Source of the DNA: an uncultured archaeon
GTDB lineage: Archaea; Thermoplasmatota; Penumbrarchaeia; JASLWR01
DNA: 64,000 bases
Assembly: GCA_964430885.1 (NCBI GenBank)
Contig: CAYSHM010000015.1
Span: forward strand, 1-64,000
Direction of reading: 5' to 3'
In this document: in pieces, positions 1 to 54,788 of the stretch
Numbering within the stretch: position 1 is the stretch's first letter
How the letters are laid out: each line of letters starts with the position of its first letter
Made by a program: the position numbers and the translations under genes
The notes under the pieces: model-generated
The model's database searches: none
The model's input: only the letters and a program-made list of their open reading frames with translations
What the model was told of the DNA's origin: nothing

Positions 1-2
1 TC

Positions 3-3000
3 GTGTCCGCCGTCATACTGACCGTCCACCATGTCGTATCTCACAGTGCCCACGGTATCCTTCCAGGGAACCGGTTCCAGGTTACCTGTGGCATCGCAGT
101 TGTGCGAGAAGATCAGGGGTGCCGTATAGGTCATGTTGTTGTGGTTTGTCTCATCCTTGGCCTGAATGAACAGATTGAAGGGCATTCCGGCATAGAGTTC
201 GGTCTGGATGGTTTCCATCTCGAACCTGTTTGTGGGTCCGGCATACACTGTCAATATGTCCTCAAGCCAAAGGTCCTGAGGTCCGGGGTTTCCGGTGGTG
301 TTCTGAACTCTGAAACCGGGATACCAGGGAGGATCTCCCTGCTCTTCATACCAGGTTCCACGGGGTGTGAGGTAGAATGTACCCATTCCTCTCTGTGTTC
401 CGTCGAACTGGATGAAATCGTCACCGGTGACATCGAATGCACCTCCGTCTCCTTCCTGGAGGTCGACGAAATAGATGGTCTCACCGCTGAAATCCTCGAT
501 GACATTGTTGTAGTCATCTTTGATGTATACTACAAGAACACCCTCAAGTCCGTACTGCAGCGCACCCACCGGAACGAGTTCTAATGTGGTAGCGGGGCCT
601 GTCGTAAGCTCAAGGTCGAATGAAACCGGTATCTCTGTGGGCTGATGGATCGCCGTTATGGTTATCTCGTCGCCGATCTCTCCTCCGGAGCTCTTCACTA
701 TCTTCTTGTGGGGGAAGGGCTGTCCGTTCTCGGGATCGATAACGTCCTCAAAGGACCAGTCGTCAAGACCTGTAAGGGTCCAGTCGGTGAATGTCTGCCC
801 AGGCATTTGGAGAGCAGGGTCCTGATCATCGAAGGATACCAGTGTTATCTCTGAACCTGGATCGCCAGGGTTGGCGCCGTTGTTCTTGATTATTGAGCCC
901 TCTATCTCGGCATACTCGAATGCCATTATCCTGAAGATAGGCATATCGAGAACAGTTTCGAAGATGTCTCCGTCCCATTCCTCATACTGAAGTGAAATGG
1001 GTCCGATATCTCCATGGAATCCCTGAATAGATGTCACATCAGCGGTTACCAGGTTCACATCACCGGATTCAACCGAAGGAGTATTCCAGTCCAATGTTCC
1101 GTCCACAACAATACCGGGAGCCTGGGCATAATCGAGCTGCACAGAAGTTCCAGCATCTCCTTCCTCTTCATCACCAAGGCCGAAGATCGTCACATTCACG
1201 GTACCCATATCGGGAACACCCTGGTCAAGAGCATAATAGATCGGCGGGTCAGGTGATACTTCGGTATGGGCCCAGATCCTTGGTACGTCCAGGATAACAC
1301 CTTCGGCTTCCTGGTTTGCTTCGCACTCGAACATATCCCATAGTATGCCGGAATCGGGTATTCCTCCGTCGTCATACTGCTGGAACTTGATCCAGAGGTC
1401 CTCTTCTGTGCCTGGTGCATCGCATGTTTCAACACCGTTGGCATCTAGTAGTGCGATTATATCGAATGGGCCTTTTTCCACCCAATCGGTAAGATCGTTC
1501 TCGTACTGCCAGAGTCTGTACCAGGTATCGTTATCGGTTGATACCGCGATACCATCGGACTCGTGGTGTCCCTGGAAAGAAGCGGGCATGGGATCGGGTG
1601 TGAGATCATCTCCGAAAGCCATTGTTGCAAACTTAAGATTAAGTCCATCCACATCCTGGAGCCCTACATGGGCAACCAGTTCATTGAGGTTCTCTCCGGC
1701 TCTGGTCTCTGCACCAGTGTCCATTCTCCAGCAGTACATGTCATCGTAGGCCACAAAACCTACATCTTCAGTGACATAAAGGAGGAAATTATCAAGGGAA
1801 AATCCACCATACACCAATAATATCCAACTAGCATCAAATTCAAAACTAAACCTGACTTCCTGTCCTGCAAAGGCACTAACATCAAAATTAAATACATCCT
1901 CAACTGATCCATACCAGTCTGACTGAGTTTCATAAATCATAAAGGTGTCAAGAGGATTGCCGCCTCCTGCAGGTTCAATGTCAACTCTGATCTCAAAAGG
2001 ATCGCCATCCCAATTACAGCAAATATCCAGGTAATAACTGTAATCGAACTCAATTGAATGGGCATTATCGGGTAACTGTATATCTTGAGCTAGGCTTATC
2101 CACCTAGGCTGTTCATTACAGCAGGTGTCCATCTCAACGTAATAATAATTGTTACCGTCCGGAACACTGTTGAACATTGCATTCCATGAGCTTGAGCTGG
2201 TTGACCCCCATACACGCTGGTTATTCCAATCATTCCAGTTATTATCAATTATCCAACCATTTGTATTACCTGTCTCAAAGCTTGGATTTGTGAATGGATT
2301 GTCTTCAGCTAATATTGGCGATAGTACCACTCTCTCATTAATACCTTCATCAGTACTTGTGTAAGTATACCAGGCCCTACCTCCGGAATATTCGGGATCT
2401 GAAAGGTCCTTTTTGAAAGTCTCCTGAAATCCGACGATCAATCCTGTTCCCTGGATGTCCACATTGTCTATCCACCATCCCTCTCCTTCACCGCCGCATC
2501 CGCAGCACCCGTCACAGGTATCCATTCTCCACCTGACCTGGAAATTTGCATAGGGGTCCACATTGTAGTCGAATGTGATGTCTCTTCTCCAAGTCCGATC
2601 ACAGAAATTATGCAATTGATTGTTCTGACCGTGGATACATGTCCATGATCCGCCACCGTTGGTGGTTACCTCGACTCTTTCAATATCATAATATGAGGGC
2701 CATCCACCTTCATTGTTTGACCATGAATCGAATATGATCCTCAATTCACCAGTGGATCCTGCCCTTAATTCAGGGCTCTTTATCCAGCTGTTGTCGCATC
2801 CGTAGTCACCGTCGTTGGGTGTACCATAACAGCTTTCGCCCTGTACATTGCCCAACTGCCACATGCTTGGTCTTGCGCCGCATCCGCAGGTTGTACTTCC
2901 TTCTTGTCCGGTGGTCCAATCACCGACGCCTGCACTGAAATCGTCACCGAATATGGTTCCCCATTCATCTGCACGTGTGGGATTTTTTATCGTTCTAGAA

Positions 3001-3155
3001 GATTTGATATCTTCCAAGTCCATCCTTTCAACCATACTGTCCTTTCCGTTGAATTTCATTCCCAATACCATTGAGAATCCGGAAATAACGAATAAGAACA
3101 GAATGGTCACAATCAGGGTATTTCTACCCATTTTATTCGTTTTTTTCTCTTTCAT
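3..3155 (-). CDS. Giant modular surface protein, paralog 1 (3' end runs off the window; >1050 aa)
   Basis: Hand translation from ATG 3155 (MKEKKTNKMGRNTLIVTILFLFVISGFSMVLG, signal/anchor; GGAGG upstream), open to position 3. Absent from the ORF track because there is no stop in the window. Scaffold aligns by eye with the next two genes (CWRMD..NLNELVAHVGL, DGIAVSTDNDTWY, LWIKFQQY, LTTGPATT). Confidence 0.88.
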   Translation of the reverse strand, partial: MKEKKTNKMGRNTLIVTILFLFVISGFSMVLGMKFNGKDSMVERMDLEDIKSSRTIKNPTRADEWGTIFGDDFSAGVGDWTTGQEGSTTCGCGARPSMWQLGNVQGESCYGTPNDGDYGCDNSWIKSPELRAGSTGELRIIFDSWSNNEGGWPSYYDIERVEVTTNGGGSWTCIHGQNNQLHNFCDRTWRRDITFDYNVDPYANFQVRWRMDTCDGCCGCGGEGEGWWIDNVDIQGTGLIVGFQETFKKDLSDPEYSGGRAWYTYTSTDEGINERVVLSPILAEDNPFTNPSFETGNTNGWIIDNNWNDWNNQRVWGSTSSSSWNAMFNSVPDGNNYYYVEMDTCCNEQPRWISLAQDIQLPDNAHSIEFDYSYYLDICCNWDGDPFEIRVDIEPAGGGNPLDTFMIYETQSDWYGSVEDVFNFDVSAFAGQEVRFSFEFDASWILLVYGGFSLDNFLLYVTEDVGFVAYDDMYCWRMDTGAETRAGENLNELVAHVGLQDVDGLNLKFATMAFGDDLTPDPMPASFQGHHESDGIAVSTDNDTWYRLWQYENDLTDWVEKGPFDIIALLDANGVETCDAPGTEEDLWIKFQQYDDGGIPDSGILWDMFECEANQEAEGVILDVPRIWAHTEVSPDPPIYYALDQGVPDMGTVNVTIFGLGDEEEGDAGTSVQLDYAQAPGIVVDGTLDWNTPSVESGDVNLVTADVTSIQGFHGDIGPISLQYEEWDGDIFETVLDMPIFRIMAFEYAEIEGSIIKNNGANPGDPGSEITLVSFDDQDPALQMPGQTFTDWTLTGLDDWSFEDVIDPENGQPFPHKKIVKSSGGEIGDEITITAIHQPTEIPVSFDLELTTGPATTLELVPVGALQYGLEGVLVVYIKDDYNNVIEDFSGETIYFVDLQEGDGGAFDVTGDDFIQFDGTQRGMGTFYLTPRGTWYEEQGDPPWYPGFRVQNTTGNPGPQDLWLEDILTVYAGPTNRFEMETIQTELYAGMPFNLFIQAKDETNHNNMTYTAPLIFSHNCDATGNLEPVPWKDTVGTVRYDMVDGQYDGGH

Positions 3156-3410
3156 TTAAGTCCTCCTTTATACATATAAAGAAATATCACCCATGATTTT
3201 CATTTTCAATCATAGGTACAATAAGGAGGAATTATCTAGTATATATCATTTTCAATGTTTATAGTACCTAGTAAAATTGTTAAATAAATTAAATGGTATT
3301 TTATAATTAATTTGGTTCATATCTGAAATATGATAAAACTATTGCTAGACAATTCATATGACAGTGTAATATGTTTATTTGCATGAAGTGCACGGGTTAT
3401 TTTTTCAGAA

Positions 3411-3460
3411 AAAGAATAAAAAAGGGACCCAGAGGGTCCCAGCCGGATAATTTCCAACCA
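3411..3460 (-). terminator. Double hairpin plus U-tract downstream of paralog 2
   Basis: Minus strand reads GGTTGGA..TCCGGCT, then GGGACCC-TCT-GGGTCCC, then TTTTTTATTCTTTTT; an equivalent element follows paralog 3. Confidence 0.7.
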
Positions 3461-3495
3461 ATTTAATCAAAACAATTTTTTCCGTTTCTCTGCAT

Positions 3496-6400
3496 CTACT
3501 GCTCGATCTGGACCTCAAAGAGCTCGTTGTCCTTTGTCTTCAGAGCGAAGTAGTATCCTGCCCTGGCCTCACCGGGATCGGGTGTTCCGTCGTAGTTATC
3601 GTGGTCCTCGCTCTTGATGATGAACCGGTCACCCGTAGACAGATACCCGTCATGGTCGCCGTCATGGAAGGACACGATGGTCTCGTTGTCGATGGACTTC
3701 CCGTAAATAGCGGTGACCTTGTGCTGACCCATGCTCTTATCCACCTTGTTCCCGTCCATGAGGGAGAACTCCAGGTCCTCGACCGAGAATTCTTTATCTT
3801 TCACGTTCTCGATGATGAGCTGGTAGTCGTTCTGAAGTGTCGGACCTTCCCAAGCGGTATCCACATACTCGATATCGTTGCTCTTCTGCGTGTCAACCAA
3901 TCCTGAAACCCAGAGCCAGAGAACACCTGCAAGAACGATGGTAATGGCCACCATGAGAATGATTGCAATTACCGGCGAAACACCTTCCTCATCCTTCTTT
4001 CTCCTATTTCCCTTCTCATTATTACGGGAATAGAGATTCGCTATCACAGCTCCAGCAAGAAGGGCCAGAATCATGAAGGCTAAAGCGGGTGCGAATGACG
4101 GGGTCTCGGATGCCGGAGGTGCTGCCACAGCATGCAGCTCTATGAGGGCAGATTCATCTTCATCATTCCATTGGAAATCTCTCATGTCAGCTCCGCCTGC
4201 AATATCGATTATCTCGACCTTGAGGTAGTTCACATTATCAGAGTTTTCGTTATTATAGTTCAAGGCATTTGCCATGCTTTCGAAAGGTATTATAGCTCCG
4301 TATTCTTTCACCCCTTCCTGGTCTGAATGCAGATACAGAAGCCGGAAAGTTCCATTTGGTGCACCGCTGGTATGGATAACGTGCCCTAGGCCCTCTTCCT
4401 CGCCCTGAATATTCACTTCATGGTATATTGTACACTTTACCAGAAGCTGAAGGTTATCGGGGAAAGAACCGGGTTCTGGAGTCTTGTAATGAACCGGCAC
4501 CCTGAGTTGGAAAGGTGTATCCAGAAGGAATTCCGTAGTACCAATTTCTTCATCCAGAAGCCAAACATTCAGCCTGTTGAACACTCTAACAGGTACCTCA
4601 AGTGTGACCTCTCCATCAAGGAACTCATCAGTGTCTTCAGCGGTAATATAAACCATTCCATCCATGTAGGAATACTCGCCATCCTTGATACCTGGATTGT
4701 CTTCTAGACTGAAGTAGTCTACAGCCTGGAATTCAGACTCGTCCATCATCCCGATTATTTCATCTGCATCCCAATCTGAAATGTCGAACTCCGTTACTGG
4801 ATTGCCCCATTCATCAAAAGCTAGAACATCGAATATCTGGGTACCGCTTACGGGTATCAGGAGATGACCGTCTTCCGCATGCAGAACATCCATGATAGAC
4901 GGATCTGGTATTGGTGTAAGCTCCGCCAAAGGACCCGCTCTCACTTCAAGATCGAGCTTCCCGTTCACAGCGTGGTTTATTCCTGATTTCATACTGATCT
5001 CGAGGTTCTCAGTTGCCTGGTAGAACACAAACTCGGTCAACTGATCTGGAGCTGTGATCTCACCGTCGATCATCTCAAGGGATATATTGGACGGTTCTGT
5101 TTGCCATGGTTCAGGTTCCAATAGGCCTGTTGCAGGAGAATTATGTTCAGCGATAATAGGTGCGGTGTATGTTGTTGATACATGATCACCCATATCAACG
5201 GCTTGGACATCCAGATACAGGGTCTCGCCTGCATAGATATAATTCTCAGGTCTCGGAGCAACACCCATTTCATCCCAGTCCGGAGTGACCAATAGGTGAT
5301 GTACCGGACCAGCATCTACATCCAATGAAACATCAGCACTGAGCCCCTCAATGGTCTCAAAGTGAATTATGGTATCGCCGTCACCCATGTATGTCCAAGG
5401 TGTAATGAAAAATGTATGCAGTGCCCTATCAGCTGGTGTGAACTCATAATAAAGCCAACCGTCATAGGGGCCTCCATCATCCTCCGTCTCCACTTCAGCT
5501 GAGAAATCAACCTCACCTGCATCAATGCGGATATACATCTTGCCAGTCCAATCCACGGCCTCGTTGCCATAGTCATCCTGGACCGCAATCGTAAGAATAT
5601 CGGTCATGCTGTACATATAGTTATCCAGGGGTGTGACAGTGGCTGTGGTAGCAGGCCCTGAGGTAAGGGTTATGGAGTATTCATAGGTATCTCCTGTTCC
5701 CCTCGCAGCCCCATGGGTCACAGATATGCTGCCCTGATCGCCAGGTTCCCCTCCCACAATATGGAGGTATTTTTGATGGCTTTCCACAGTATCGAATAGC
5801 TGCCAGCTGTCGGCCGTAGGAAAATCCACCTGCCAATTATGGAATTCCTGGGGTATCATTTCACCAGGCGGTTCAAGGTCATCATAAGAGACCAAAGTTA
5901 TGAAATTGCCGTCTTCAGGGTTAGGTCCGTGTTTATTGGCTATGAACTCGGAATCCTCACTAAACTCTGCGAATGAGAACTCCTGAATTCTCAAATAGGG
6001 AGAATCAAGTTCCTTATTAATGATCTCGTTATCCCATGTTATATACTGGAGGGTGAAGACTCCTATCTCTCCTGCAAATCCCTCCGGTGAAGATATCGAG
6101 AAATCTATATCGAATTCGTCGCCAACAAAAACAGCATCATCATCCGGGTTTTCAGTAGCTGAGGACCATGTGATCTCAGTGATGTCCGGGTCGTTATCAA
6201 TTATTATTCCGTCAGCTCTTTCATAGATAAGCCGAACTTCGTTTGCTGCAGGATCACCGCCACCAAGATAAGTTATGGTTACCTTCCCATGACCTGGATT
6301 GACTCCTGTTTCATTATCGGGATTATCTCCGTCATTATAGGAACCACCACCTCCGGACCATCCACCGTTGTTATCCGAGCCGCCGCCTGAATAACCTCCA

Positions 6401-9400
6401 CCACCGCCCGATCCGCCCCAACCGCCTGCGGCACCACCGCCGAATCCGCCCAGCTCAGCGTTCGGTCCGAAATAATTGGAAGGTGTATATCCTCCTTCAC
6501 CACCGTTAAGGAATGATCTAGACGGTAAGGGATTACCCCCTCTATTATCATTGGAGGCATCACCGTCACCTAAGAATCCTGCACCAGCTCCCCCACCATG
6601 GGTCGGAGGATGATAGGTTGTTCCGCCCATACCGTTGTTCCCTCCGTTGTTCAAACTGCTGCCGGCAAATCCATCTCTTCCATCTATTCCAACATGACCG
6701 TCAGTGGTTTCTCTTCTGATCAAATCTCCAGGGTTCCTTCTTGCTCCGCCACCGCCAGCTACTATTAGAGGCGTGTCGTCGTCAAGAGCAACGAAAGAAC
6801 CTCCTCCGCCGCTGCAGGCCACATTATCTTGGGTACCTCGTTGTCCAACAATGATCTTCAAGGTGTCACCTGCATTAAATGAGAAATCACCTTTCATTCT
6901 GGCACCGAAACCTTCGTTATCATATCCTCCCTGAGCACCCCATACTTCTATAGTATAATCACCTCCGGATGGAAGTTCAAATACCTGGATGCCGCTGTCG
7001 GATGTGACCATCCCGTCCAATTCGGTACCGGAATAAGCACTATTGATCTGTGGTTGGTTCGGACCGAATCTTCCATTGACTCCGCAATTTGTGAATTCGT
7101 AAATAACGGGGTCTGCTCTGGTGTTCCCACCTGCCCCAGCTCCACCAAGGCCGTCAATGTTCACCGTTACATCGGCCACATCCGGTTCCCCCTGGCCTTC
7201 GGCATATATCCTGAAGGGATCTTCAGGATCGGTCTCGATATAGACATCAAGTGTCGGGACCGCAAAATTAAATTCCACTTCGGGGTTTGCTCTCAGAGTG
7301 ATCTCATCCCAGAGAATAGTTTCATCTGGGAAGGCACCGCTGCCGTACTGCATGAATTTAATATAAAGATCTTCTTGGGGGTCTACGCTGTTGTTGGGTA
7401 AAATTGATAGAAGGTCGAATTCTCCATACATGTTCCAGCCTCCTGGATTCTGCGGGGCCCAGACCTTGTACCAGTTATCTCCGTCAATACTAACAGCAAC
7501 CCCGTCAAAGGTAATTTCGTCATCACCGCTGAACATAGGCGGCATTGGGTCGCAGTTTCCATATATCTCCGCTGCAAACTCCAAAGTGAGATCTGTGACA
7601 TCCTCTTCACCTGCATCCAATCCGATGTGCAAGGTCAGTTCATTGAGATTATTCGCTCTTACAATAGGATCGGGGTTATCCATGACCCAGCAAAAGGGTC
7701 CTCGATCTTCCTCTTCATAGGAATCGAATCCCGGATCATCAACCTCTTCATAGAGAATTATCTCTACCATACCATGACCATCATTGGCATTTGGTGTGTT
7801 GGATTGGATATCGCCATCATTGTATGACCCACCACCTCTGGCTGTGGTAGAGAAATTATAACCTCCTCTACCTCCATGATAGCCTCCTCCGCCTCCACCA
7901 GGATGATGGATGGATGCACCGCCGCCGCCAAATCCTCCGTCACCGCTGTAATTTGAATCTCCTCCTATACCGTTGTTCCTGAAACTATGAGCGTTGTTTG
8001 ATTGAGAATTTCCAACAAATCCGGCTGCACCACTATCGCAGTAGGAGCCGCAATTCCCTCCACCGGTACCATTGTTTGTGGTAAGACCACCTTCTCCTGG
8101 CTGGTTGACTCCCTGATAATAAGCTGTCCCACCGCCTCCTCCACCGGCTACTATCAGGGCGTCAGAAGAGCTGTAGTGATTGCCAATTGTTACATAGGAA
8201 CCACCGCCTCCGCCACCGCCATGGGAATTGTTGTTTGATGGATTATTGCCTTTTTGACCCACGGCAATGATCAATTTATCACCCAGGTTAAGGTCAAAAT
8301 CACCTTCCATTCGGGCACCTTTTCCACCTTGATTACTACCGTTCACCTCACCCCCTTGGCCGCCGTAAGCTTTGATAGTATAGGTGGCAGTTTGTGGGAC
8401 TGTCCACTCCTGGTAACCCTGTGTACTTATTATTACATCACCTTCCAGGCTTGTGCCTGAATATTCGGAATTTGCATTCCCCTGGTTTGGGCCGAATCTT
8501 CCTGTAGCTCCACAGTTTGTGAACGTATAATTTGCAGCTTCAACAAGTGCGGGCTCGGTCATAATTCTCTCATTTCGCGCAGTTTCCAGAGTGGATCTTT
8601 TCATCCAAGCAGAAGCGAAATCTGATGCATCTTCTCCTGACAATGGATCACTGAATGTTTCCAGATAATACCTAGCTAGAGGTACTGGTGGAGTTGATAT
8701 CAATATTTCACCGTGTCCAGTTTTGTCCCCTGCCTTGTTATCGGTGTTATCACCTGAGTTGTAACCGCCTCCACCTCCTCCTTCACCAGAGGAATTCTGT
8801 CCACCGCCACCACCGGAATAACCGCCACCTCCACCGCCACCGTGGCACGTTCCAGCTCCACCACCGAATCCTCCGGAAGCACCATAACTGGCATATCCCC
8901 ATGCTCCACCTTCAAAGCTGAACTTGGACAATCCTCTTCCGCTGCCCCAGCAGGTATTGTTCTGGCCGTGCCCCTTCCACCCAGCTCCGCCTGCACCGGC
9001 ATAGCATCCCCCGGAATTTCCTCCATATCCGTTGGATCCACCGCCTCCACCTGGTGATCCTGGTTTACCTGAGGTTGTTGTTGGCGCATCGGCATCAGAA
9101 GGATTGTCCCAACCGCCTCCACCTCCTCCAGCAGTGATAAGAGGTTCATTTGTTTGTCCGTCTAACCAAAGGAAAGATCCGCCTCCCCCCCCGCCTCCGC
9201 AATAGCTTTGTGAACCCTGCTCACCTTTCTGTCCAACGACTAGTTTGAGAAGATCACCCTGATTTAGGTCAAACTCTCCTTCCATGGATGCCCCTTTGCC
9301 CCCCGTGGTACCTTGACCTCTTGCTCCCCCTTCGGCTCCCTTGACCACAATAGTATATGTACCGGTCTCGGGAACCACCCATTCCTGGATACCTGTTTGA

Positions 9401-10644
9401 TTGATGCTGACCTGTCCATCTAGATTAGTGCCAGCATATTCGGAATTTGCGTTGGACTGATTAGGGCCGTATCTTCCGGTTTTACCACAGTTGGTGAATG
9501 TGTACGTCACACCGGTTCCCTCTTCAAATTCCACACCGTATTCTGAGCCGCCTTTTAATATTTCAAGTAGTGTGATTTTGGCCTTTCCATGACCAGCCTG
9601 GATACCTGATTCAGTTCCTGAATCACTAAGAACGGGATCGAGATAAGCAGATCCTCCACCTCCACCAGCTCCCCAACCCCTGCCGTGCTGAGCACTTGAA
9701 CCGGATCCGCCGCCATACCATCCTCCACCGCCTCCACCGCACCCGCAGTGATACCAACCGGGTGTTGCATGTCCTCCCTGGAAGAATGATCCGTCCCCTC
9801 CAGGAGAATAAGAATTGGAAGAACCCATATCGTATCCTCTAGGACCGCCTGCATCCTGTGTACCTCCCCCCCCTCCCTGGGACCATCCGCCGTTACCGCC
9901 CCCTGCGTTCTGACCCTGAAGACCTCCGCCATTACCCCCCCAATCCTCTGAAGTGCATCCGTCAGAAGCTCCGCCACCACCAGCAATTAACAGGAAATTG
10001 TGATCGTTCGGAGTGCCAACGTCCATTCCTGTTCTGATATCCGAAGAACCTCCACCTCCGTAACCATGACCATTATCTGCCCCGCCATCACCGCCATTTG
10101 GCCATCCTCCACCGTCAGGGTTGAAGTTGCCTTGATGCCCCTGCTGTCCAACTACAACATAAAGGGTTGAATTATTCTCCAATTCAACGGAACCGTAGGA
10201 ATAACCACCTTCACCGGGGTTTCCTCCACCATTACCACCCTGAGCACCCCATACTTCTAGTTTATAGATACCGTTTACAGGAACATCCCAAGGCATTTCT
10301 GATCCGGTATAATTGAAATCCCAGATGTCACCCTCTTCCGGACCTGCTCTTGTAGATATCCCGTCCATGACCGGTTCATCAATAGGTTCTTCAATGGGTT
10401 CAATAAAATAATCACTACTAGTAGGGAGTGAACCCACGCTGCCGTCCGAATATTCGGCAGCCATACCGTAGCTCATGGTCTGTGTATCCATGGTTTTCTC
10501 GTTCTGGTATGGAAGAAAGATAACTTCCTTTACCTTTACATCCTCATTGTTATCACTTTCAAATATATTACCAACCATCAGCGCTAGACCTGTGAGTATC
10601 AGAGCACTGATAGCAAGTATCAATATCATTTTTTTCATTTTCAT
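3496..10644 (-). CDS. Giant surface protein, paralog 2 (2382 aa): four ALK/LTK-type Gly-rich modules, TPSF-TM anchor, C-terminal type IV pilin-like domain
   Basis: N-terminal hydrophobic signal; repeated FTNCGxxGRxGP..GxQxWxVPxxxxYTIxxxGAxGG..LxxxVGQxG..PLIxAGGGGG modules; C-terminal ETPSF-TM-RRKKDEEG/VSPVIAIILMVAITIVLAGVLWLWVSG. Confidence 0.9.
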   Translation of the reverse strand: MKMKKMILILAISALILTGLALMVGNIFESDNNEDVKVKEVIFLPYQNEKTMDTQTMSYGMAAEYSDGSVGSLPTSSDYFIEPIEEPIDEPVMDGISTRAGPEEGDIWDFNYTGSEMPWDVPVNGIYKLEVWGAQGGNGGGNPGEGGYSYGSVELENNSTLYVVVGQQGHQGNFNPDGGGWPNGGDGGADNGHGYGGGGSSDIRTGMDVGTPNDHNFLLIAGGGGASDGCTSEDWGGNGGGLQGQNAGGGNGGWSQGGGGGTQDAGGPRGYDMGSSNSYSPGGDGSFFQGGHATPGWYHCGCGGGGGGWYGGGSGSSAQHGRGWGAGGGGGSAYLDPVLSDSGTESGIQAGHGKAKITLLEILKGGSEYGVEFEEGTGVTYTFTNCGKTGRYGPNQSNANSEYAGTNLDGQVSINQTGIQEWVVPETGTYTIVVKGAEGGARGQGTTGGKGASMEGEFDLNQGDLLKLVVGQKGEQGSQSYCGGGGGGGSFLWLDGQTNEPLITAGGGGGGWDNPSDADAPTTTSGKPGSPGGGGGSNGYGGNSGGCYAGAGGAGWKGHGQNNTCWGSGRGLSKFSFEGGAWGYASYGASGGFGGGAGTCHGGGGGGGYSGGGGGQNSSGEGGGGGGYNSGDNTDNKAGDKTGHGEILISTPPVPLARYYLETFSDPLSGEDASDFASAWMKRSTLETARNERIMTEPALVEAANYTFTNCGATGRFGPNQGNANSEYSGTSLEGDVIISTQGYQEWTVPQTATYTIKAYGGQGGEVNGSNQGGKGARMEGDFDLNLGDKLIIAVGQKGNNPSNNNSHGGGGGGGSYVTIGNHYSSSDALIVAGGGGGGTAYYQGVNQPGEGGLTTNNGTGGGNCGSYCDSGAAGFVGNSQSNNAHSFRNNGIGGDSNYSGDGGFGGGGASIHHPGGGGGGYHGGRGGYNFSTTARGGGSYNDGDIQSNTPNANDGHGMVEIILYEEVDDPGFDSYEEEDRGPFCWVMDNPDPIVRANNLNELTLHIGLDAGEEDVTDLTLEFAAEIYGNCDPMPPMFSGDDEITFDGVAVSIDGDNWYKVWAPQNPGGWNMYGEFDLLSILPNNSVDPQEDLYIKFMQYGSGAFPDETILWDEITLRANPEVEFNFAVPTLDVYIETDPEDPFRIYAEGQGEPDVADVTVNIDGLGGAGAGGNTRADPVIYEFTNCGVNGRFGPNQPQINSAYSGTELDGMVTSDSGIQVFELPSGGDYTIEVWGAQGGYDNEGFGARMKGDFSFNAGDTLKIIVGQRGTQDNVACSGGGGSFVALDDDTPLIVAGGGGARRNPGDLIRRETTDGHVGIDGRDGFAGSSLNNGGNNGMGGTTYHPPTHGGGAGAGFLGDGDASNDNRGGNPLPSRSFLNGGEGGYTPSNYFGPNAELGGFGGGAAGGWGGSGGGGGYSGGGSDNNGGWSGGGGSYNDGDNPDNETGVNPGHGKVTITYLGGGDPAANEVRLIYERADGIIIDNDPDITEITWSSATENPDDDAVFVGDEFDIDFSISSPEGFAGEIGVFTLQYITWDNEIINKELDSPYLRIQEFSFAEFSEDSEFIANKHGPNPEDGNFITLVSYDDLEPPGEMIPQEFHNWQVDFPTADSWQLFDTVESHQKYLHIVGGEPGDQGSISVTHGAARGTGDTYEYSITLTSGPATTATVTPLDNYMYSMTDILTIAVQDDYGNEAVDWTGKMYIRIDAGEVDFSAEVETEDDGGPYDGWLYYEFTPADRALHTFFITPWTYMGDGDTIIHFETIEGLSADVSLDVDAGPVHHLLVTPDWDEMGVAPRPENYIYAGETLYLDVQAVDMGDHVSTTYTAPIIAEHNSPATGLLEPEPWQTEPSNISLEMIDGEITAPDQLTEFVFYQATENLEISMKSGINHAVNGKLDLEVRAGPLAELTPIPDPSIMDVLHAEDGHLLIPVSGTQIFDVLAFDEWGNPVTEFDISDWDADEIIGMMDESEFQAVDYFSLEDNPGIKDGEYSYMDGMVYITAEDTDEFLDGEVTLEVPVRVFNRLNVWLLDEEIGTTEFLLDTPFQLRVPVHYKTPEPGSFPDNLQLLVKCTIYHEVNIQGEEEGLGHVIHTSGAPNGTFRLLYLHSDQEGVKEYGAIIPFESMANALNYNNENSDNVNYLKVEIIDIAGGADMRDFQWNDEDESALIELHAVAAPPASETPSFAPALAFMILALLAGAVIANLYSRNNEKGNRRKKDEEGVSPVIAIILMVAITIVLAGVLWLWVSGLVDTQKSNDIEYVDTAWEGPTLQNDYQLIIENVKDKEFSVEDLEFSLMDGNKVDKSMGQHKVTAIYGKSIDNETIVSFHDGDHDGYLSTGDRFIIKSEDHDNYDGTPDPGEARAGYYFALKTKDNELFEVQIEQ
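3992..4113. repeat. 122-bp exact repeat, copy 1 (copy 2 at 11336-11457)
   Basis: Base-by-base identity by eye; encodes the TPSF-TM-basic linker. Confidence 0.85.
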
Positions 10645-10756
10645 GTTAGTATCTCCTATCCTTTTTCAGATTGTTTCACTTCAGCTTACATATACAGCAG
10701 CCGGAGTAGAATATCTAGAATCACAGGATTATTTATAATTTGTTAGAAATAAAATG

Positions 10757-10804
10757 AAAAATAAAAGGGACCCCTAAGGGTCCCGGTCGGTTACTTTCCA
10801 ACCA
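10757..10804 (-). terminator. Double hairpin plus U-tract downstream of paralog 3
   Basis: Minus strand reads GGTTGG..CCGACC, then GGGACCC-TTAG-GGGTCCC, then TTTTATTTTT. Confidence 0.7.
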
Positions 10805-10839
10805 ATATAATCAAAACTTTCAATTACTTTTCTCAACAT

Positions 10840-13800
10840 CTACTGCTCTATCTGCACCTCGAAGAGTTCATTGTCCTTTGTCTTCAGGGCGAAGTAGTAC
10901 CCAGCCCGTGCCTCACCAGGGTCGGGAGTTCCATCGTAGTTCACATGGTCCTCGCTCTTGATGATGAACCGATCACCAGTGGACAAATACCCGTCATGGT
11001 CCCCGTCATGGAAGGAAACGATGGTCTCGTTGTCGATGGACTTGCCGTAGATAGCGGTCACCTTGTGCTGACCCATGCTCTTATCCACCTTGTTTCCGTC
11101 CATAAGAGAGAACTCCAGATCCTCAACCGAGAACTCTTTATCCTTCACGTTCTCTATGATGAGCTGGTAGTCGTTCTGAAGCGTTGGACTTTCCCAGGCG
11201 GTATCAACATACTCGATATCGTTGCTCTTCTGTGTATCCACAAGTCCCGATACCCAGAGCCAGAGAACACCGGCAAGAACGATGGTAATGGCCACCATGA
11301 GAATTATGGCTATAACCGGTGAAACACCGTCCTCGTCCTTCTTTCTCCTATTTCCCTTCTCATTATTACGGGAATAGAGATTCGCTATCACAGCTCCAGC
11401 AAGAAGGGCCAGAATCATGAAGGCTAAAGCGGGTGCGAATGACGGGGTCTCGGATGCAGGCGGTGCTGCAACTGCGTGGAGTTCTGTCAAGGTCCAATCA
11501 TCACCTTCGTTCCACTGGAAATCACGCATATCTGCCCCACCGGGTACGTCCAGTATCTCGACCTTGAGATAGTTCACCGTGTCCGCATTGTCCGTATCAT
11601 AGTTCAATGCGCTTGCCATGCTCTCGAACGGAATGAGGACACTGTATTCCTTGATTCCTTCCTTACTATTAACCAGGTTCAGGAGTCTGAAGGTTGAATT
11701 CGGGGCTCCGCTGGTATGAATAACATGCCCGTCACCCTGTTCTTCACCCTGGAAGTTCACCTCATGATAGATCGTGCACTTCACAAGAAGCTGCAGATTG
11801 TCGGGGAATGAATCTTCGGGAGAATTATAGTGGACGGGAACCCTCAGTTCAAAGGGGGTGTCAAGCAGGAACTCAGTAGCTCCGATCTCCTCCCTCACTA
11901 CCCAAACATTCAATCTATTGAATACTCTGATGGGTATCTCCAATGTGACCTCACCTTCAAGGAAATCGTCCGTATCCTCGGCGGTAATATATACATAACC
12001 ATCGAGATAAGAATATTCTCCAGGTTCGATCTCAGGGTTGTCATCAAGGCTGAAGTAGTCCACAGCTTCGAACATGTCATCGTCCATAATTCCAAGTAAC
12101 TCATCGGTATCCCAGTCAGTTATTGTCAGGCCACTAACAAGGTTTCCCCATTGGTCAAAACCCTGAACATCAAAGGTCTGGGTCCCGCTCACAGGGATTA
12201 ATAATCGGCCGTCAGCAGCGTATTGGGCTTCAAGAACAGAGGGATCAGGTATCGGAGTCAATTCTGCCAATGGTCCCGCTCTAACCTCCATATCCAATTT
12301 TCCGTTTATTGCATGGTTAATTCCAGATTTCACGTTGATTTCCAGATCTCCTGTTGCCTTGTAGAAAATGAACTCGGTTAGCTGGTCCTGTGCTGTTATC
12401 ACCCCATCGATCATTCCCATGATTATATTAGAGGTCTCAGTAGCCCAGGGTTCAGGTTCAAGTTCACCAGTAGCCATGGAATTGTGCTCCACTATCATTG
12501 GGGCTTCATATGAAGAGGAAACATGATCTCCCTGATCCACCGCAACTATATCTATATACAGGGTTTCACCGGCATAGATATAATTATCCGGTCTTCCTGA
12601 TACGCCCATTTGATCCCAATCAGGTGTGACTATAAGGTGGTGAACTGGTCCTGCATCCACGAATAGTTCAACCTGGGCACTCAGACCTTCGATGGTCTCG
12701 AATTGGATGATCGTGTCGCCATCTCCCATATAGGTCCAAGGAGTAATGAAGAAGGTATGAAGTGCTCTGTCTGCGGGTGTGAACTCGTAATACAAATATC
12801 CGTCATACAGTCCTCCATCATCCTCTACCAGAACTTCTTCGGAGAAGTCAACTTCACCGTCCAGCATACTGATGTACATCTTTCCGGTCCAATCCACAGC
12901 TTCATTTCCGTAGTCGTCCTGTACAGCTACCGTCAAGATGTCAGTCATGCTGTACATATATGAAGGCAGAGCGGTCACCGTGGCAGTGGTTGCCGGACCG
13001 GATGTCAGGGTTATCGGGAATTCAAAGGTTTCTCCGGTCCTTGTTTCAGGTCCGTGGGTTACCGTGATAGTACCCTGATCCCCTGGAGATCCGCCTACAA
13101 TGTGGAGATATTTCTGATGACTGAATCCGGTATCAAAGAGCTGGAAACTATCAACGGTGGGGAGATCGATCTGCCAGCCATGGTATTCTTGCGGTGGCAT
13201 CTCTCCAGGCGGTTCGAGATCATCCCAAGCCAACAATGTGAGCAGGTTTCCGTTTTCCGGATTCGGTCCATGTTTATTCGCAATAAAGGTAGTATCATCG
13301 CTGAACTCAGCATAAGCAAACTCCTGAACCCTAAGATATGGTGATTCAAGTTCCATATCAACGATCTCGTTGTCCCATGATATGTACTGAAGTGTGAATA
13401 AACCAATCTCGCCGGCAAATCCAACGGGTGAAGAGATCATGAACTCAATAATGAACTCATCCCCGACAAATACCACATCATCGTCTGGGTTTGCATCTGC
13501 GGATGACCATTCTATCTCGGTAAGGCCGGGATCATCATCAATTATTATACCGTCTGCTCTTTCATAGGTGAATCGGACCTCAGAGGCAGCCGGATCGCCG
13601 CCGCCCATGTAGGATATCTCAACTTTTCCATGGTCGGAGTTTACTCCAGCTTCGTTATCCTGATTCTCACCATCATTGAATGAACCTCCTCCGCCCCCAG
13701 CAGTCGGATAATGGTAACCGCCGCCACCGCCGGAATATCCTCCTCCGCCTCCAGAACCCCAGCATCCGTTACCGCCGCCACCGCCGAATCCCCCGAAAGG

Positions 13801-28118: not shown

Positions 28119-30509
28119 TCAATCGAGCTTGTCCCCTTCTTCTTCGGGGTTGTTTTCTTTATTGTCGATATCTTCACTCTCGCGATTCTCATCAGTAGAG
28201 TCCTGGTCCTTTCTCTCCTCCCCCTCTTCAATGGGGTCTTCATCCTCATCTGTCTCCTCTACTACCTGTTCATCATCTTCATTAAGGCTCTCATCACTTT
28301 CTGCTTTGTTTTTACCTCTTGCTAAAAAGAAAACCACCAGTATGAACAGCAATGCCAGTCCAAGAATTACAATGGTTGAATTCCTTGATATAAATCCTTC
28401 ACTGTCACTATCCTTTTTATCACCATTAGGATCGTCATCGTTGTCGCCAGTATCATCATCTCCGCCAGCCAGTGAAGTGATGTTGATCCAATATGTCCTA
28501 TTGACCTGATTCCCAGATATGTCCGTAACGGTAAGCATTATTGAATAATTACCGGGATTCTCAAACAGAAATGTGTTCACCGCTCCGTATAGTTCAACTT
28601 TTCCTCCAGCATAATCGAAGCTCCATGTCTGGTTCACAATACGGATATTATCTGTAGCTGTAGAATTGAATAGGACTGTCTGCCCTTCCTTGGCTATCTT
28701 GTTGGGAATATCTCCGATTTCAGGAGGTATCATGTCCTTCACAATGACAACAACATCATCCCAGTTAAAGTTCCCAGCATTATCAGTAACATAAAGGATA
28801 ATGAGATAGGAACCGATCAGGCTGAACGTGTATTCTACTTTTTCTCCATAGATTACTGCTATCTGTTTGTTCCTAAAGTCTATGACCCAGGTGAAATTAA
28901 TAATGGTAGAATGATCTGTAGTATTACTTCCGTCAAGGGCCAAGTTGGTTCCTGAAGCCACTGTTCTATGTTTGGGTCCCGCGTCCACATTGGGTTTGAT
29001 ATTATCCACTACCGTAATAATAATAGTACGGGTATCATTGTTTTCTCTTATATCATATACCGTGAGTGTCACCTTGAAATCCCCTATCTCATGGAAGGAG
29101 AAGTTCACGTCCATTCCGTACAGGACGAATATGTCACCAGCATATTCAATATTCCATGTATAGTTCACAATTCCAATGTTATCATAGCTGTCACTGGCGT
29201 TGAATATGACCTTTTCTCCGATATACGCTTCGCGGTCATCCCCTGGATCTGAACGAGGTTTTTTCGTGTCCAAAACGGTTATAACAAAGGTGTCTCTATC
29301 TCCATTTCCCTGGGCATCCTTAACGGTCAATTCAATTTCAAATATACCTGCGGTATTGAAAAAGAAATCGGTTTCGATTCCAGTCAGTTCTCTCATCTGA
29401 CCAAGATAATAGAAGTTCCATCGGTATTCCACAATTTCAATATTATCCGTAGAATTGCTTCCGTCAAATATGACCAAATTGAACTGTTCAATAACCTGAT
29501 CCCTACCCGCATCCGCTGTAGGTTTTTGGGCGTCTATGACATAGACCTCTAAAGAGTCGGTACTGATGATGTCTGAGTTGTTCAATTCATCCATAACACT
29601 GAGGGTGATTGAGTACGCACCTGGATAGTGGAATATGTAATGCTGGGAAACACCGAAAAGTACAACCAAAGTATCATTCAGGGTGAAATACCAGGTCCAA
29701 TTTGTTACCGCTACATTGTCAGTGCTGTTGCTTCCGTCGAAATATGCAGTCTCGTGCTGTTTTATATGAATATCTTCACCAGCATTTGCCACGGGCGGTT
29801 CGCCATCAAGTGCGGTCACGTTGAAACTGTCTTCACCAATATTTCCCGTTGCATCCACCACTGTTAAATATATTACAAAATCCATCTCATAGCCCATTAT
29901 TATTCCTGTGGTTTCATTCATATATTTCCATTTGAGGCATGTGGGACCGAACCACGACCAGGAAAAGTGAACTATCTTGATATTGTCATAGCAGTGCCTA
30001 CCGTCGACATGAATGGGCTGATGGCTCTTCGCACTCCTGTCAGGGCCTGCATTGGCTATGGGATCTATTGTATCATTGACAGTTATTGTTCGGTTGTCTG
30101 TCTGATTCCATAAGCTGGAATTGTCCGAGAAGTGGAAGGTATAATTAATGGCTGTAGCATTTGCAGATACGTTTATCTCTTCCTGCCATATGCAGTCACC
30201 TATGTTGGTCAGGCTCTCGTTGAATCTCTCATTTTCCAATCCTTCCGTGAAAAAAATATAATTCACCCAGACCTCCGTAAGATTTACATTGTCTGAGAAG
30301 TTTCCTGCAAAGGTCAATTGTCTCCCGGTATCAGTGCTTGTAGGTGTGAGATCCTCTAACATTATAGGGGCTTCACTATCACTGATCAATCCAATTTCAT
30401 TTCTATCATATACCTCTGCAGAGAGAAAGGAGAATAACAATGGTGCCAATAGGAATATCATTGCAGTAAAAGTTATTTCTCTGTTACGTTTATTACTGTA
30501 TACCGCCAT
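28119..30509 (-). CDS. PKD-repeat surface glycoprotein, copy 1
   Basis: Signal peptide, about 6 PxAxAG..FDGSxSxDN..W repeats, many NxS/T sequons, C-terminal TM and acidic tail. Confidence 0.88.
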   Translation of the reverse strand: MAVYSNKRNREITFTAMIFLLAPLLFSFLSAEVYDRNEIGLISDSEAPIMLEDLTPTSTDTGRQLTFAGNFSDNVNLTEVWVNYIFFTEGLENERFNESLTNIGDCIWQEEINVSANATAINYTFHFSDNSSLWNQTDNRTITVNDTIDPIANAGPDRSAKSHQPIHVDGRHCYDNIKIVHFSWSWFGPTCLKWKYMNETTGIIMGYEMDFVIYLTVVDATGNIGEDSFNVTALDGEPPVANAGEDIHIKQHETAYFDGSNSTDNVAVTNWTWYFTLNDTLVVLFGVSQHYIFHYPGAYSITLSVMDELNNSDIISTDSLEVYVIDAQKPTADAGRDQVIEQFNLVIFDGSNSTDNIEIVEYRWNFYYLGQMRELTGIETDFFFNTAGIFEIELTVKDAQGNGDRDTFVITVLDTKKPRSDPGDDREAYIGEKVIFNASDSYDNIGIVNYTWNIEYAGDIFVLYGMDVNFSFHEIGDFKVTLTVYDIRENNDTRTIIITVVDNIKPNVDAGPKHRTVASGTNLALDGSNTTDHSTIINFTWVIDFRNKQIAVIYGEKVEYTFSLIGSYLIILYVTDNAGNFNWDDVVVIVKDMIPPEIGDIPNKIAKEGQTVLFNSTATDNIRIVNQTWSFDYAGGKVELYGAVNTFLFENPGNYSIMLTVTDISGNQVNRTYWINITSLAGGDDDTGDNDDDPNGDKKDSDSEGFISRNSTIVILGLALLFILVVFFLARGKNKAESDESLNEDDEQVVEETDEDEDPIEEGEERKDQDSTDENRESEDIDNKENNPEEEGDKLD

Positions 30510-34112: not shown

Positions 34113-35429
34113 TCATACTTTGATCTCAAGATTGTTCTTGTGGGGATCAAAGAAGTGAGTGATATAATATTCATCAATTTCAGTTTGAACCCCACCGGAG
34201 GATCTATAGGTCCAGGATGTATAGTAGGATTCAATGTCAAGAGGAAGCGGTGGCATCTCGGCCATTTCGACATCTGGGTGTTTTGGTCCACCCGGATCCT
34301 CCCAATCTGAAAACCTATTTGCGTCCCTTTTGAGAAAATGATGGTTAACAGGGTCTACCACTGGCTGGTAAAGATCACCGTTATCGAGAGGGATAAGCAA
34401 TTTTGCCCAGCCGTGTCCCTCCCATGCATTATTGGGATCATAGGAATATTGATTGTACAGTGCTCCGTTCTGGAGCCACGCAGGTATGCCAACTGATCGG
34501 CATAGTGAAATGAAAAGAATAGCCTGATCGTCACAATCTCCATAACCGTCATATAGGGTCATATAAGCCGGTTTTGGTTTGCCGTGAAAGCGCTTCCGGT
34601 CATTCTCCATCTGTTCAGGGGTTGGATAGGCAAATCCGCCTCCATTGAATCCATATCTTTCGCCTGCTGCGGTTCCTCCTTTCTGCAGGAACTGATAGAT
34701 ATTGTAGGCTATCAAGTATATATTGTCCTCGCCGTCCGCAAGGTCCTCGGCTATGGCTTTGATCTTCTGGTTTGACGGTTCTATTCTATAATCAGGAGTT
34801 TTATTGTCATTATCAACATCCCTATAGGTGGATCCGTCCTCAGCAAATACTATCCACCTATCGCCAGTGTAGCGATTTGTATAGTTCTTGGGTATGTCTT
34901 CAATTTCCCCTGAATTTCTTGCGTTTATATCCCATTCAACAGTATAACTGCGGATATGATATGTGAGATGTATATCTATAGATGAGGTTGTTTCAGCGTT
35001 CCAATACAGTATGGATTCACCGTTTTCTTCCACAGTACGGGTAGGTTTAGGGTCTGTTTCAAAAGCTATGACCTTTTGTATCTCTCTGCCCATAAGTTCA
35101 ATGTCCTGGGGCGGTGTTACAACAAGAGAATACTCTATCTTTCCACCGGTGGGTGTGATTGTTAGAACCCTTTCCACCTTGAAATCGGTAAACTCAGGGT
35201 CTTCTTGATAATATTCCAATCCCGCCACCAAGGATTCCATAAGGGTGTCTCTATAGGGCTTCCAGCTCGGTAATATTAGTACCAGTATGAGGAGTACAAG
35301 AAGAATAAGGGCCACAAGTTTAGTGATAATATTTCCTATAGATATCCTTCTCTTCCTCTTGCGTTTTGGGGCCTTGCTCCTTGGTTGATCCTGATAAATA
35401 GGAGGCCGTGGTTCATATTGCCCTGTCAT
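34113..35429 (-). CDS. Membrane-anchored transglutaminase-like domain protein
   Basis: Basic N-terminus + TM; GDCDDQAILFISLCRSVGIPA, GHGW, VVDP (Cys-His-Asp triad). Confidence 0.85.
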   Translation of the reverse strand: MTGQYEPRPPIYQDQPRSKAPKRKRKRRISIGNIITKLVALILLVLLILVLILPSWKPYRDTLMESLVAGLEYYQEDPEFTDFKVERVLTITPTGGKIEYSLVVTPPQDIELMGREIQKVIAFETDPKPTRTVEENGESILYWNAETTSSIDIHLTYHIRSYTVEWDINARNSGEIEDIPKNYTNRYTGDRWIVFAEDGSTYRDVDNDNKTPDYRIEPSNQKIKAIAEDLADGEDNIYLIAYNIYQFLQKGGTAAGERYGFNGGGFAYPTPEQMENDRKRFHGKPKPAYMTLYDGYGDCDDQAILFISLCRSVGIPAWLQNGALYNQYSYDPNNAWEGHGWAKLLIPLDNGDLYQPVVDPVNHHFLKRDANRFSDWEDPGGPKHPDVEMAEMPPLPLDIESYYTSWTYRSSGGVQTEIDEYYITHFFDPHKNNLEIKV

Positions 35430-54748: not shown

Positions 54749-54788
54749 TCCTTCACCCAATGCTGTCTTTGATGTTATCCTATATACT

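Follow-up and report, generated by a model that had tools for sequence, protein, structure and literature searches.

Archaeal class III signal peptides are cut by PibD, FlaK, or EppA, and they have been defined, predicted (with FlaFind-type tools), and surveyed as N-terminal features. Among proteins with large exported parts, the Haloferax S-layer glycoprotein is a PGF-CTERM/archaeosortase A (ArtA) substrate, and the bacterial modular pilins PilB and PilC of Streptococcus sanguinis have an N-terminal pilin module with functional domains after it. In passages of three published accounts, a 2026 survey of type IV filaments (PMC13705601), Makarova et al. 2016 (PMC4858521), and a study of Thermoplasmatales pili (PMC12448462), class III signals are described as N-terminal only. 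Here we describe giant genes in a 64,000-nt stretch of DNA (hereafter the window), the forward strand of contig CAYSHM010000015.1 from assembly GCA_964430885.1 of an uncultured archaeon (Thermoplasmatota; Penumbrarchaeia; JASLWR01); the window is contig C15 of this source genome, which is 91.6% complete at 3.13 Mb in 44 contigs. Two complete open reading frames (ORFs A and B) each join a large ectodomain and a transmembrane (TM) anchor, in frame, to an internal class III signal and a pilin module, and we argue below that the products are probably polyproteins from which a prepilin peptidase would release the pilin.

A pilin module behind an internal class III signal

Both ORFs terminate in ETPSF-APALAFMILALLAGAVIANLY-SRNNEKGNRRKKDE(E/D)G↓VSPVIAIILMVAITIVLAGVLWLWVSGL plus 133 further residues, where the arrow marks the predicted cut. 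As the initial annotation of this DNA had claimed, the shared ending extends for 161 residues from the Val at 3981 and 11325, coordinates that we confirmed, and neither gene contains a stop codon or frameshift: ORFs A and B are open and uninterrupted throughout, and each starts with a hydrophobic signal-like segment. From its N-terminus, ORF A encodes a hydrophobic signal or anchor, a glycine-rich (ALK_LTK_GRD) ectodomain, a P-S-F motif with TM helix 1 (TM1) and a linker, the class III signal, and the pilin module; the ALK_LTK_GRD family (PF12810) scores 141 and 27 bits in ORFs A and B, respectively. The cleavage context of the window copies is …DE[ED]G↓VSPVIAIILMV…, and the site lies at residue 2221 (ORF A) or 2242 (ORF B), behind the ectodomain and TM1 rather than behind a short N-terminal leader. 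Searches of the tail with hidden Markov models (HMMs) for the archaeal pilin N-terminal domain, which the annotation had proposed as a check, came out positive: Pfam Pilin_N (PF07790) scores 38.5 bits over amino acids (aa) 2220-2293 of ORF A and 34.6 bits over aa 2241-2314 of ORF B (cut-off 25.2), and TIGR02537 scores 38.9 bits on the module (cut-off 20). Since both models score above cut-off, the internal signal is no chance look-alike, and by this family membership it is a genuine class III signal. The linker between TM1 and the signal in ORF A carries six Lys/Arg residues and is predicted to be cytoplasmic; the predicted N-terminal signal, TM1, and this linker all agree with the topology originally put forward, in which the ectodomain would be outside and the basic linker inside.

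The module has stand-alone homologs of 167-213 aa in other sources, with 39-58% identity across 97-99% of its length, and the short basic leaders of stand-alone prepilins (e.g., MSRRKKKRRCGKDEEA↓VSPVIA…) align with the linker of the fused proteins. AlphaFold2, run on that alignment, returned a mean predicted local distance difference test (pLDDT) score of 79.9; TM1 is helical at 18-41, a second helix spans 56-81 after a disordered linker, and the beta-sandwich is modelled with confidence. The PDB entries that Foldseek places highest are 8rey, the filament of Cuniculiplasma divulgatum (E 5e-5), and 8fj5, the type IV pilus of Haloferax volcanii (E 1.4e-4), and the next are several archaellins and Natrinema PilA1, with 9myg at E 9e-3. 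The modelled fold of the module is that of an archaeal type IV pilin; the helix, the beta-sandwich, and best fold matches to filament-forming pilins bear out the claim, and the structure-prediction check, of a complete pilin. Complex prediction with four copies of the mature pilin (score 0.00, mark 0.42) carries no weight either way.

The stand-alone prepilin P0019 (189 aa; leader MAERIANHHRYNMRKSAWRNDDA) matches the module of the fused protein P0013 (2149 aa) at 165 of 166 residues from +1 onward, and that of P0010 at 163 of 166, whereas only 4 of 23 leader/linker residues agree between P0019 and P0013 before the site. This identity boundary at +1 suggests that selection acts on a product starting exactly at the predicted cut. 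By alignment, the same putative mature pilin is encoded either with a normal leader or behind an ectodomain, TM helix, and linker, as would be expected if both precursors were cut at the same bond. The source genome (91.6% complete) yielded no stand-alone copy of this pilin.

Pilin_N matches 14 places in the source genome. In ten of these the match is at the C-terminal end of an open frame 1498-2424 aa long: C26 has a tandem array of five, C15 has two, and C2, C37, and C1 have a single one each, the C1 copy being cut by the contig end. One more lies within a 1718-aa frame on C6, and the other three are ordinary small prepilins. Two further module ends of 17-19 aa are found at contig edges (C37 and C5), and the assembly breaks within the module at C1:251141-251279, C37:15252-15308, and C5:151015-151065, so that the true number of paralogs must exceed the nine complete copies. 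A scan of all frames of at least 120 aa in this genome for class-III-like sites found 17, five N-terminal and 12 internal; within the 75 aa upstream of each of the 12 internal sites come a hydrophobic helix (mean hydropathy >2.2) and a linker that carries 4-17 Lys/Arg residues.

Among the nine complete paralogs, the mean proportions of synonymous (pS) and nonsynonymous (pN) differences in the 161-codon module are 0.442 and 0.0088 (ratio 0.020), with pS ranging from 0.30 to 0.53 between pairs and a protein that is almost invariant; in 250 codons upstream of the module, the same paralogs have pS 0.70, pN 0.22, and a ratio of 0.32. Mean pairwise DNA identity is 0.55 in the linker, 0.84-0.96 in the module, and about 0.3 past the stop codon, and each of the nine copies differs from the rest in its synonymous variants and in the flank that follows it. 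Purifying selection on the module is extreme, the amino acids from the Val onward being held constant in every copy, and the combination of low pN with high pS makes recent gene conversion or assembly collapse insufficient on its own as an explanation.

The annotation had named reads with a stop or frameshift as the observation that would tell against it. Contigs of four public DNA runs (one study) covering 3300-4600 contain no indels, and a 185-nt contig from a paralog spans the junction (3929-4113) with seven substitutions, all spaced by multiples of three; these runs are not independent support, because the source sample may be among them.

Coordinates of the giant ORFs in the window and of their main features
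Feature	Coordinates	Strand	Remarks
Giant ORF A (P0001, 2382 aa)	3496..10644	-	ORF list, Pfam
ORF A N-terminal signal or signal-anchor (MKMKKMILILAISALILTGLALMVGNIF)	10561..10644	-	hydrophobicity 2.80
ORF A P-S-F motif (aa 2182-2184), immediately ahead of TM1	4093..4101	-	PGF-CTERM-like, not an HMM member
ORF A TM1 (APALAFMILALLAGAVIANLY, aa 2185-2205), putative stop-transfer anchor of ectodomain	4030..4092	-	modelled helix 18-41 of tail
ORF A basic linker SRNNEKGNRRKKDEEG (aa 2206-2221), predicted cytoplasmic, -1 = Gly	3982..4029	-	disordered, pLDDT<50
ORF A pilin N-terminal hydrophobic helix VSPVIAIILMVAITIVLAGVLWLWVSGL	3898..3981	-	predicted mature N-terminus Val2222, codon 3979-3981
ORF A pilin beta-sandwich head domain	3499..3897	-	pLDDT about 90 or more
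Giant ORF B (P0002, 2403 aa)	10840..18051	-	architecture as in ORF A
ORF B junction	11326..11445	-	PSF 11437-11445, TM1 11374-11436, linker SRNNEKGNRRKKDEDG 11326-11373
ORF B pilin module, 161 aa from Val codon 11323-11325	10843..11325	-	Pilin_N, selection analysis
Third giant paralog (P0003), 5' part, 1051 aa	3..3155	-	3' end off contig start

The giant genes (window 1-18051) have a G+C content of 0.47-0.52 and a strongly negative GC skew, and window 18052-64000 has a G+C content of about 0.40-0.44; the skew and the higher G+C of the giant genes probably reflect the Gly (GGN) codons that they carry on the minus strand.

Distribution of the fused form and a putative three-part precursor

A survey of genomes for large proteins with an internal class III signal, which the annotation had suggested, found the same architecture in other genomes and in metagenomes. 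Comparing fused with stand-alone copies in 40 genomes of relatives, we found the fused form in G001 and G003 (same family), G005 (f3), and G007 (f5); G002, from the same family as the source genome, has stand-alone copies only. Four of the 79 best GTDB loci are fused; L065, one of five sites there first scored as internal with a TM helix, proved to be a false positive of the stop-to-stop frame, with a Met 12 residues before the site. In a set of 5.8 billion proteins, the module occurs in 14 proteins of 1310-4169 aa and in 13 of 283-2000 aa, two lists that overlap partly and include some proteins encoded by the source genome. A junction profile run against 1.84 billion representatives gave 5427 matches at E<=1e-3, and the best 150 of these 5427 representative clusters comprise 37 with the fused form, 111 with an N-terminal signal, and two without the site motif that we applied. 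The site is well defined in the 37 fused representatives, with -1 being Ala in 29 and Gly in eight, and +1 being Val in 35, Ile in one, and Leu in one.

A second fused subfamily (P0076, P0050, P0164, and P0048), with proteins of up to 4595 aa, reads …VPSFAPS-TM-SRRE(acidic)…DDEAA↓VSPVIATILMV…, its linker consisting of RR beside TM1 and then a long acidic run, and its pilin helix being VSPVIATILMVAITVVLSGVIYVWAS. The ectodomains of fused proteins vary (GRD, BNR, Kelch, VWA, CARDB, GLUG, and TSP3/LTD), and the tail therefore behaves as a portable module.

Other candidates were set aside. Gene fission beside an adhesin in G002 was rejected, as that locus has three tandem stand-alone pilins and no giant gene immediately upstream; large Pilin_N frames in f7 and others (G008, G014, G016, G017, G018; G010:C214) are ordinary N-terminal class III proteins rather than fusions; and G010:C233 and G023:C257 have no clear cleavage site.

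We also built a tree of 118 mature pilin parts, 40 fused and 78 stand-alone, each delimited by a regular-expression match to the site with 125-200 aa after it (P0003 and P0016 were omitted). The fused label changes nine times on this tree as against a shuffled mean of 32.6, and none of 500 shuffles was as low; near-identical copies inflate this clustering and many forks are weak, and we claim no number of origins.

The 1718-aa frame on C6 encodes P0016, which by the arrangement of its encoded parts is a second, independent case of internal TM, basic linker, and class III junctions. In the source genome (C6:139987-149490; L045:3988-14118), genes for PilB (801 aa) and for two PilC-type proteins are followed directly by P0016, which has three parts: i) an N-terminal signal and a 470-aa domain, ending in a TM helix, a 46-aa basic linker, and KNG↓VSPVIG…, a first junction that Pilin_N matches with 78 bits (aa 510-587); ii) about 880 aa of repeats, ending in a second TM helix, a basic linker, and QKA↓VSSVVG…; and iii) a 268-aa part that resembles the pilin-like families DUF7266 (25.6 bits, cut-off 27.6) and DUF7289. 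Both junctions are retained in G005, from another family. In many relatives part 3 matches frames of about 280-330 aa, and in all four f7 genomes examined (G016, G029, G018, and G011) it is a separate gene of about 300 aa with a canonical N-terminal class III signal, e.g., MKRFLGRIDNQG↓VTNVVS…; the fused parts of P0016 therefore correspond to separate proteins elsewhere.

Proposed processing and release, and rival explanations

We consider it rather probable, if well short of certain, that the giant proteins are polyproteins cut by an A24 peptidase on the cytoplasmic face, with release of the mature pilin; cleavage is what we infer from comparison of the encoded proteins. Sec would insert the N-terminal signal and export the roughly 2200-aa glycine-rich ectodomain until TM1 halted transfer; the K/R-rich linker of 15-20 aa would remain in the cytoplasm; and the pilin helix would re-insert N-in/C-out, with export of the beta-sandwich head. 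A FlaK/PibD-type A24 aspartyl peptidase would then cleave past the -1 Gly (Ala in relatives) on the cytoplasmic face, as with ordinary prepilins, the linker serving as a substitute for the leader peptide. The freed 161-aa mature pilin, the same from all paralogs, would be polymerised by the PilB/PilC machine, and the giant ectodomain would be left anchored via TM1, an anchor whose conserved P-S-F may be a further processing site for ArtA. That the pilin polymerises, that ArtA acts, and that the ectodomain is adhesive we also infer, the label "adhesin" being suggested by size and domains, and a 1:1 stoichiometry of adhesin and pilin would hold only if every molecule were cut.

The enzymes and assembly proteins for which the annotation proposed to search, PibD, ArtA, and PilB/PilC, all have homologs in the source genome. 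A tblastn search with the peptidase proteins of G003 and G002 recovered an ortholog at C5:80406-81533 (50% and 44% identity, respectively), the product of which scores 49.5 bits with PF06847 (Arc_PepC_II; cut-off 29.9) and matches FlaK 3s0x at E 6.5e-9, with both catalytic Asp motifs aligned (ASVMDIRTRKV in the C5 product with ASVQDFRSREI in FlaK, and GGADAK with GGGDGK); the assignment as a class III peptidase follows from the PF06847 match, the FlaK similarity, and orthology. ArtA (TIGR04125) scores 125.1 bits (cut-off 75) at C3:141732-142517, and it is present in all five related genomes tested (G001, G002, G003, G005, and G007), above cut-off in four, a presence that does not discriminate because G002 has ArtA but no fused form. 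There are five PilB-type and seven PilC-type matches.

Several observations weigh against release of a pilin by this route, or against parts of the route. First, Pfam Peptidase_A24 (PF01478) fails in the source genome (best E 0.08). We rejected the reading of this null as absence of the peptidase, since relatives score weakly too (28 of 41 genomes at E<=0.01, 12 above cut-off); the ortholog was then recovered by tblastn. With a class-wide peptidase below or barely above the PF01478 cut-off, censuses based on that family would call it missing. Second, we know of no prepilin peptidase that cuts a substrate with a TM helix and a 2200-aa ectodomain in its "leader". Third, the mostly acidic linker of the second fused subfamily weakens a simple positive-inside argument there. 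Fourth, the soluble domains of FlaG and FlaF are also among the Foldseek matches, at ranks 10-11; both are pilin-like proteins that serve in the stator, anchored in the membrane, rather than building the filament.

The fifth point concerns the anchor, which the annotation had called a sorting signal. In layout that claim holds: the tripartite arrangement is present (ETPSF, a 21-aa helix, and SRNNEKGNRRKK), P[SGA]F lies ahead of TM1 in 27 of the 37 fused representatives as against 46 of 1350 random background windows (3.4%), and G007 has a literal TPGF. In family membership it does not, as the proposed search of the tail with the PGF-CTERM HMM (TIGR04126) gave no match at E<=1 or E<=10 on either the window tail or the 47-aa junction. 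The matches of TIGR04126 in the source genome exclude the giant-gene anchors (canonical PGF-CTERM ends there number three, one above the model's cut-off and two lower), and the model is unmatched in the G003, G005, G007, and P0016 junctions, the best score in relatives being 7.1 bits against a cut-off of 24.5. Nor is the motif at the extreme C-terminus, as 161 residues follow the linker. With TIGR04126 unmatched, the ArtA step is speculative.

An alternative that we think unlikely is an uncleaved double-pass anchor, in which TM1, the linker, and the pilin-like helix would form a permanent hairpin, the beta-sandwich would be a FlaF/FlaG-like envelope- or partner-binding foot, and no pilin would be released. 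The FlaG/FlaF fold matches would suit such a foot, the extreme conservation of the module could reflect a conserved binding partner, and the adhesin genes of the window do not adjoin pilB or pilC. Against a permanent hairpin, the module keeps the exact cleavage context of stand-alone prepilins (-1 Gly/Ala, +1 Val), P0019 has the same sequence from +1 (165/166) behind an unrelated leader, the best fold matches are filament-forming pilins, and P0016 lies in a PilB/PilC operon with its part 3 a free class III protein in relatives.

It is quite improbable that the pilin is a nested gene, with its own transcript or with a start codon of its own inside or beyond TM1, and that the fusion plays no role in processing. 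The Met inside TM1 (AFMILALL) that might serve as such a start occurs in the window copies and in the other paralogs of the source genome, but it is not conserved, being absent from P0010 (…VAFVGLALL…) and P0013 (…IAFVGIALL…); no Met occurs in the linker, although an internal GTG or TTG start is conceivable; initiation within TM1 would produce a prepilin whose hydrophobic leader is unlike that of any aligned stand-alone homolog; and all nine complete paralogs, as well as 37 representative clusters, keep the frame open across the junction, something that a nested gene could do without.

An assembly or gene-calling artefact, a repeated pilin cassette wrongly joined to adhesin 3' ends, might seem to be favoured by the contigs that break within the module (the C1 end and the 17-19-aa edge fragments on C37 and C5) and by short-read contigs that fragment over 3520-4230, but it can be dismissed as extremely improbable given nine complete copies with their own synonymous variants (pS 0.30-0.53) and unique downstream flanks, the same junction in separate assemblies of other genomes and metagenome sources, and contigs that bridge the junction without indels.

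Returning to the cleaved polyprotein, we put forward a wider proposal only tentatively, and give it slightly less than even odds: a TM helix, cytoplasmic linker, and class III signal may together form a general, portable, cleavable joint in this lineage, with the prepilin peptidase acting as a polyprotein processor that would free pilins both from precursors of two or three parts in pilus operons and from the C-terminal ends of many different giant surface proteins. Adhesin synthesis might then be the sole source of the major pilin, as a by-product, so that whichever of the 10 or more adhesin variants was on would bring its own subunit, and a second, archaeosortase cut at PSF could leave the adhesin lipid-anchored.

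Neighbouring genes and comparison with known systems

Elsewhere in the window, two paralogous proteins of 796 and 799 aa with five PKD_4 domains each are encoded at 28119-30509 and 31038-33437 (minus strand). A 438-aa transglutaminase-like protein (34113-35429, minus strand) and a 1424-aa protein with a transglutaminase core and Big_7/Big_3 Ig domains (44064-48338, plus strand), both near the adhesin genes, are candidates for further surface proteins. At 50363-54760 (minus strand) lies a gene for a 1465-aa fusion of two BcrAD_BadFG ATPase domains with DUF2229 (CoA-enzyme-activase type).

We found no description of an internal class III signal or of a pilin polyprotein in the literature searched, a search that left subscription journals and supplements outside, and priority elsewhere is possible. 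The pilin, the A24 peptidase, and the PGF-like anchor are each known; the arrangement, and a prepilin peptidase as polyprotein processor, appear to be undescribed. If the internal signals function, current counts of pilins and type IV filaments overlook an entire class of precursor, one that accounts for 12 of the 17 sites in the source genome; prepilin peptidases would gain a polyprotein-processing role; and adhesin and pilus production would be coupled in a new way in abundant uncultured marine archaea. The junction is short and self-contained, and hence directly testable in a genetically tractable archaeon, and the module's exceptionally low pN/pS of 0.02 across at least nine paralogs also provides a clear example of selection on a polymer subunit that many genes encode in common.

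Four described systems invite comparison. i) Archaeal type IV pilins such as those of Haloferax volcanii (8fj5) and Cuniculiplasma (8rey) share with the giant proteins the …[DE][GA]↓VSPVI signal and helix, HMM membership, the helix and beta-sandwich, and the A24 peptidase and PilB/PilC; here, by contrast, the signal is reached only 2221 residues into the protein, past an exported domain and a TM helix, and 10 or more genes supply the same mature pilin. ii) PGF-CTERM/ArtA substrates are alike in having P-[GSA]-F, a TM helix, and basic residues at the end of a large exported part, and ArtA is encoded, but here the motif is not C-terminal and TIGR04126 is unmatched. iii) FlaF/FlaG (ArlF/ArlG) stator proteins share the N-terminal hydrophobic helix and beta-sandwich, as their fold ranks reflect, but we saw no match to their sequence families, whereas the module matches Pilin_N and, over its full length, stand-alone prepilins. 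iv) Modular pilins likewise join a pilin and large, probably adhesive, domains in one polypeptide, and proteins of 2000 aa that carry the class III signal at the N-terminus are encoded by relatives in the same class (G014:C1); in the giant proteins described here the order is reversed, a TM helix and a predicted cytoplasmic linker lie between, and cleavage would separate the two parts rather than display a domain on the pilus.

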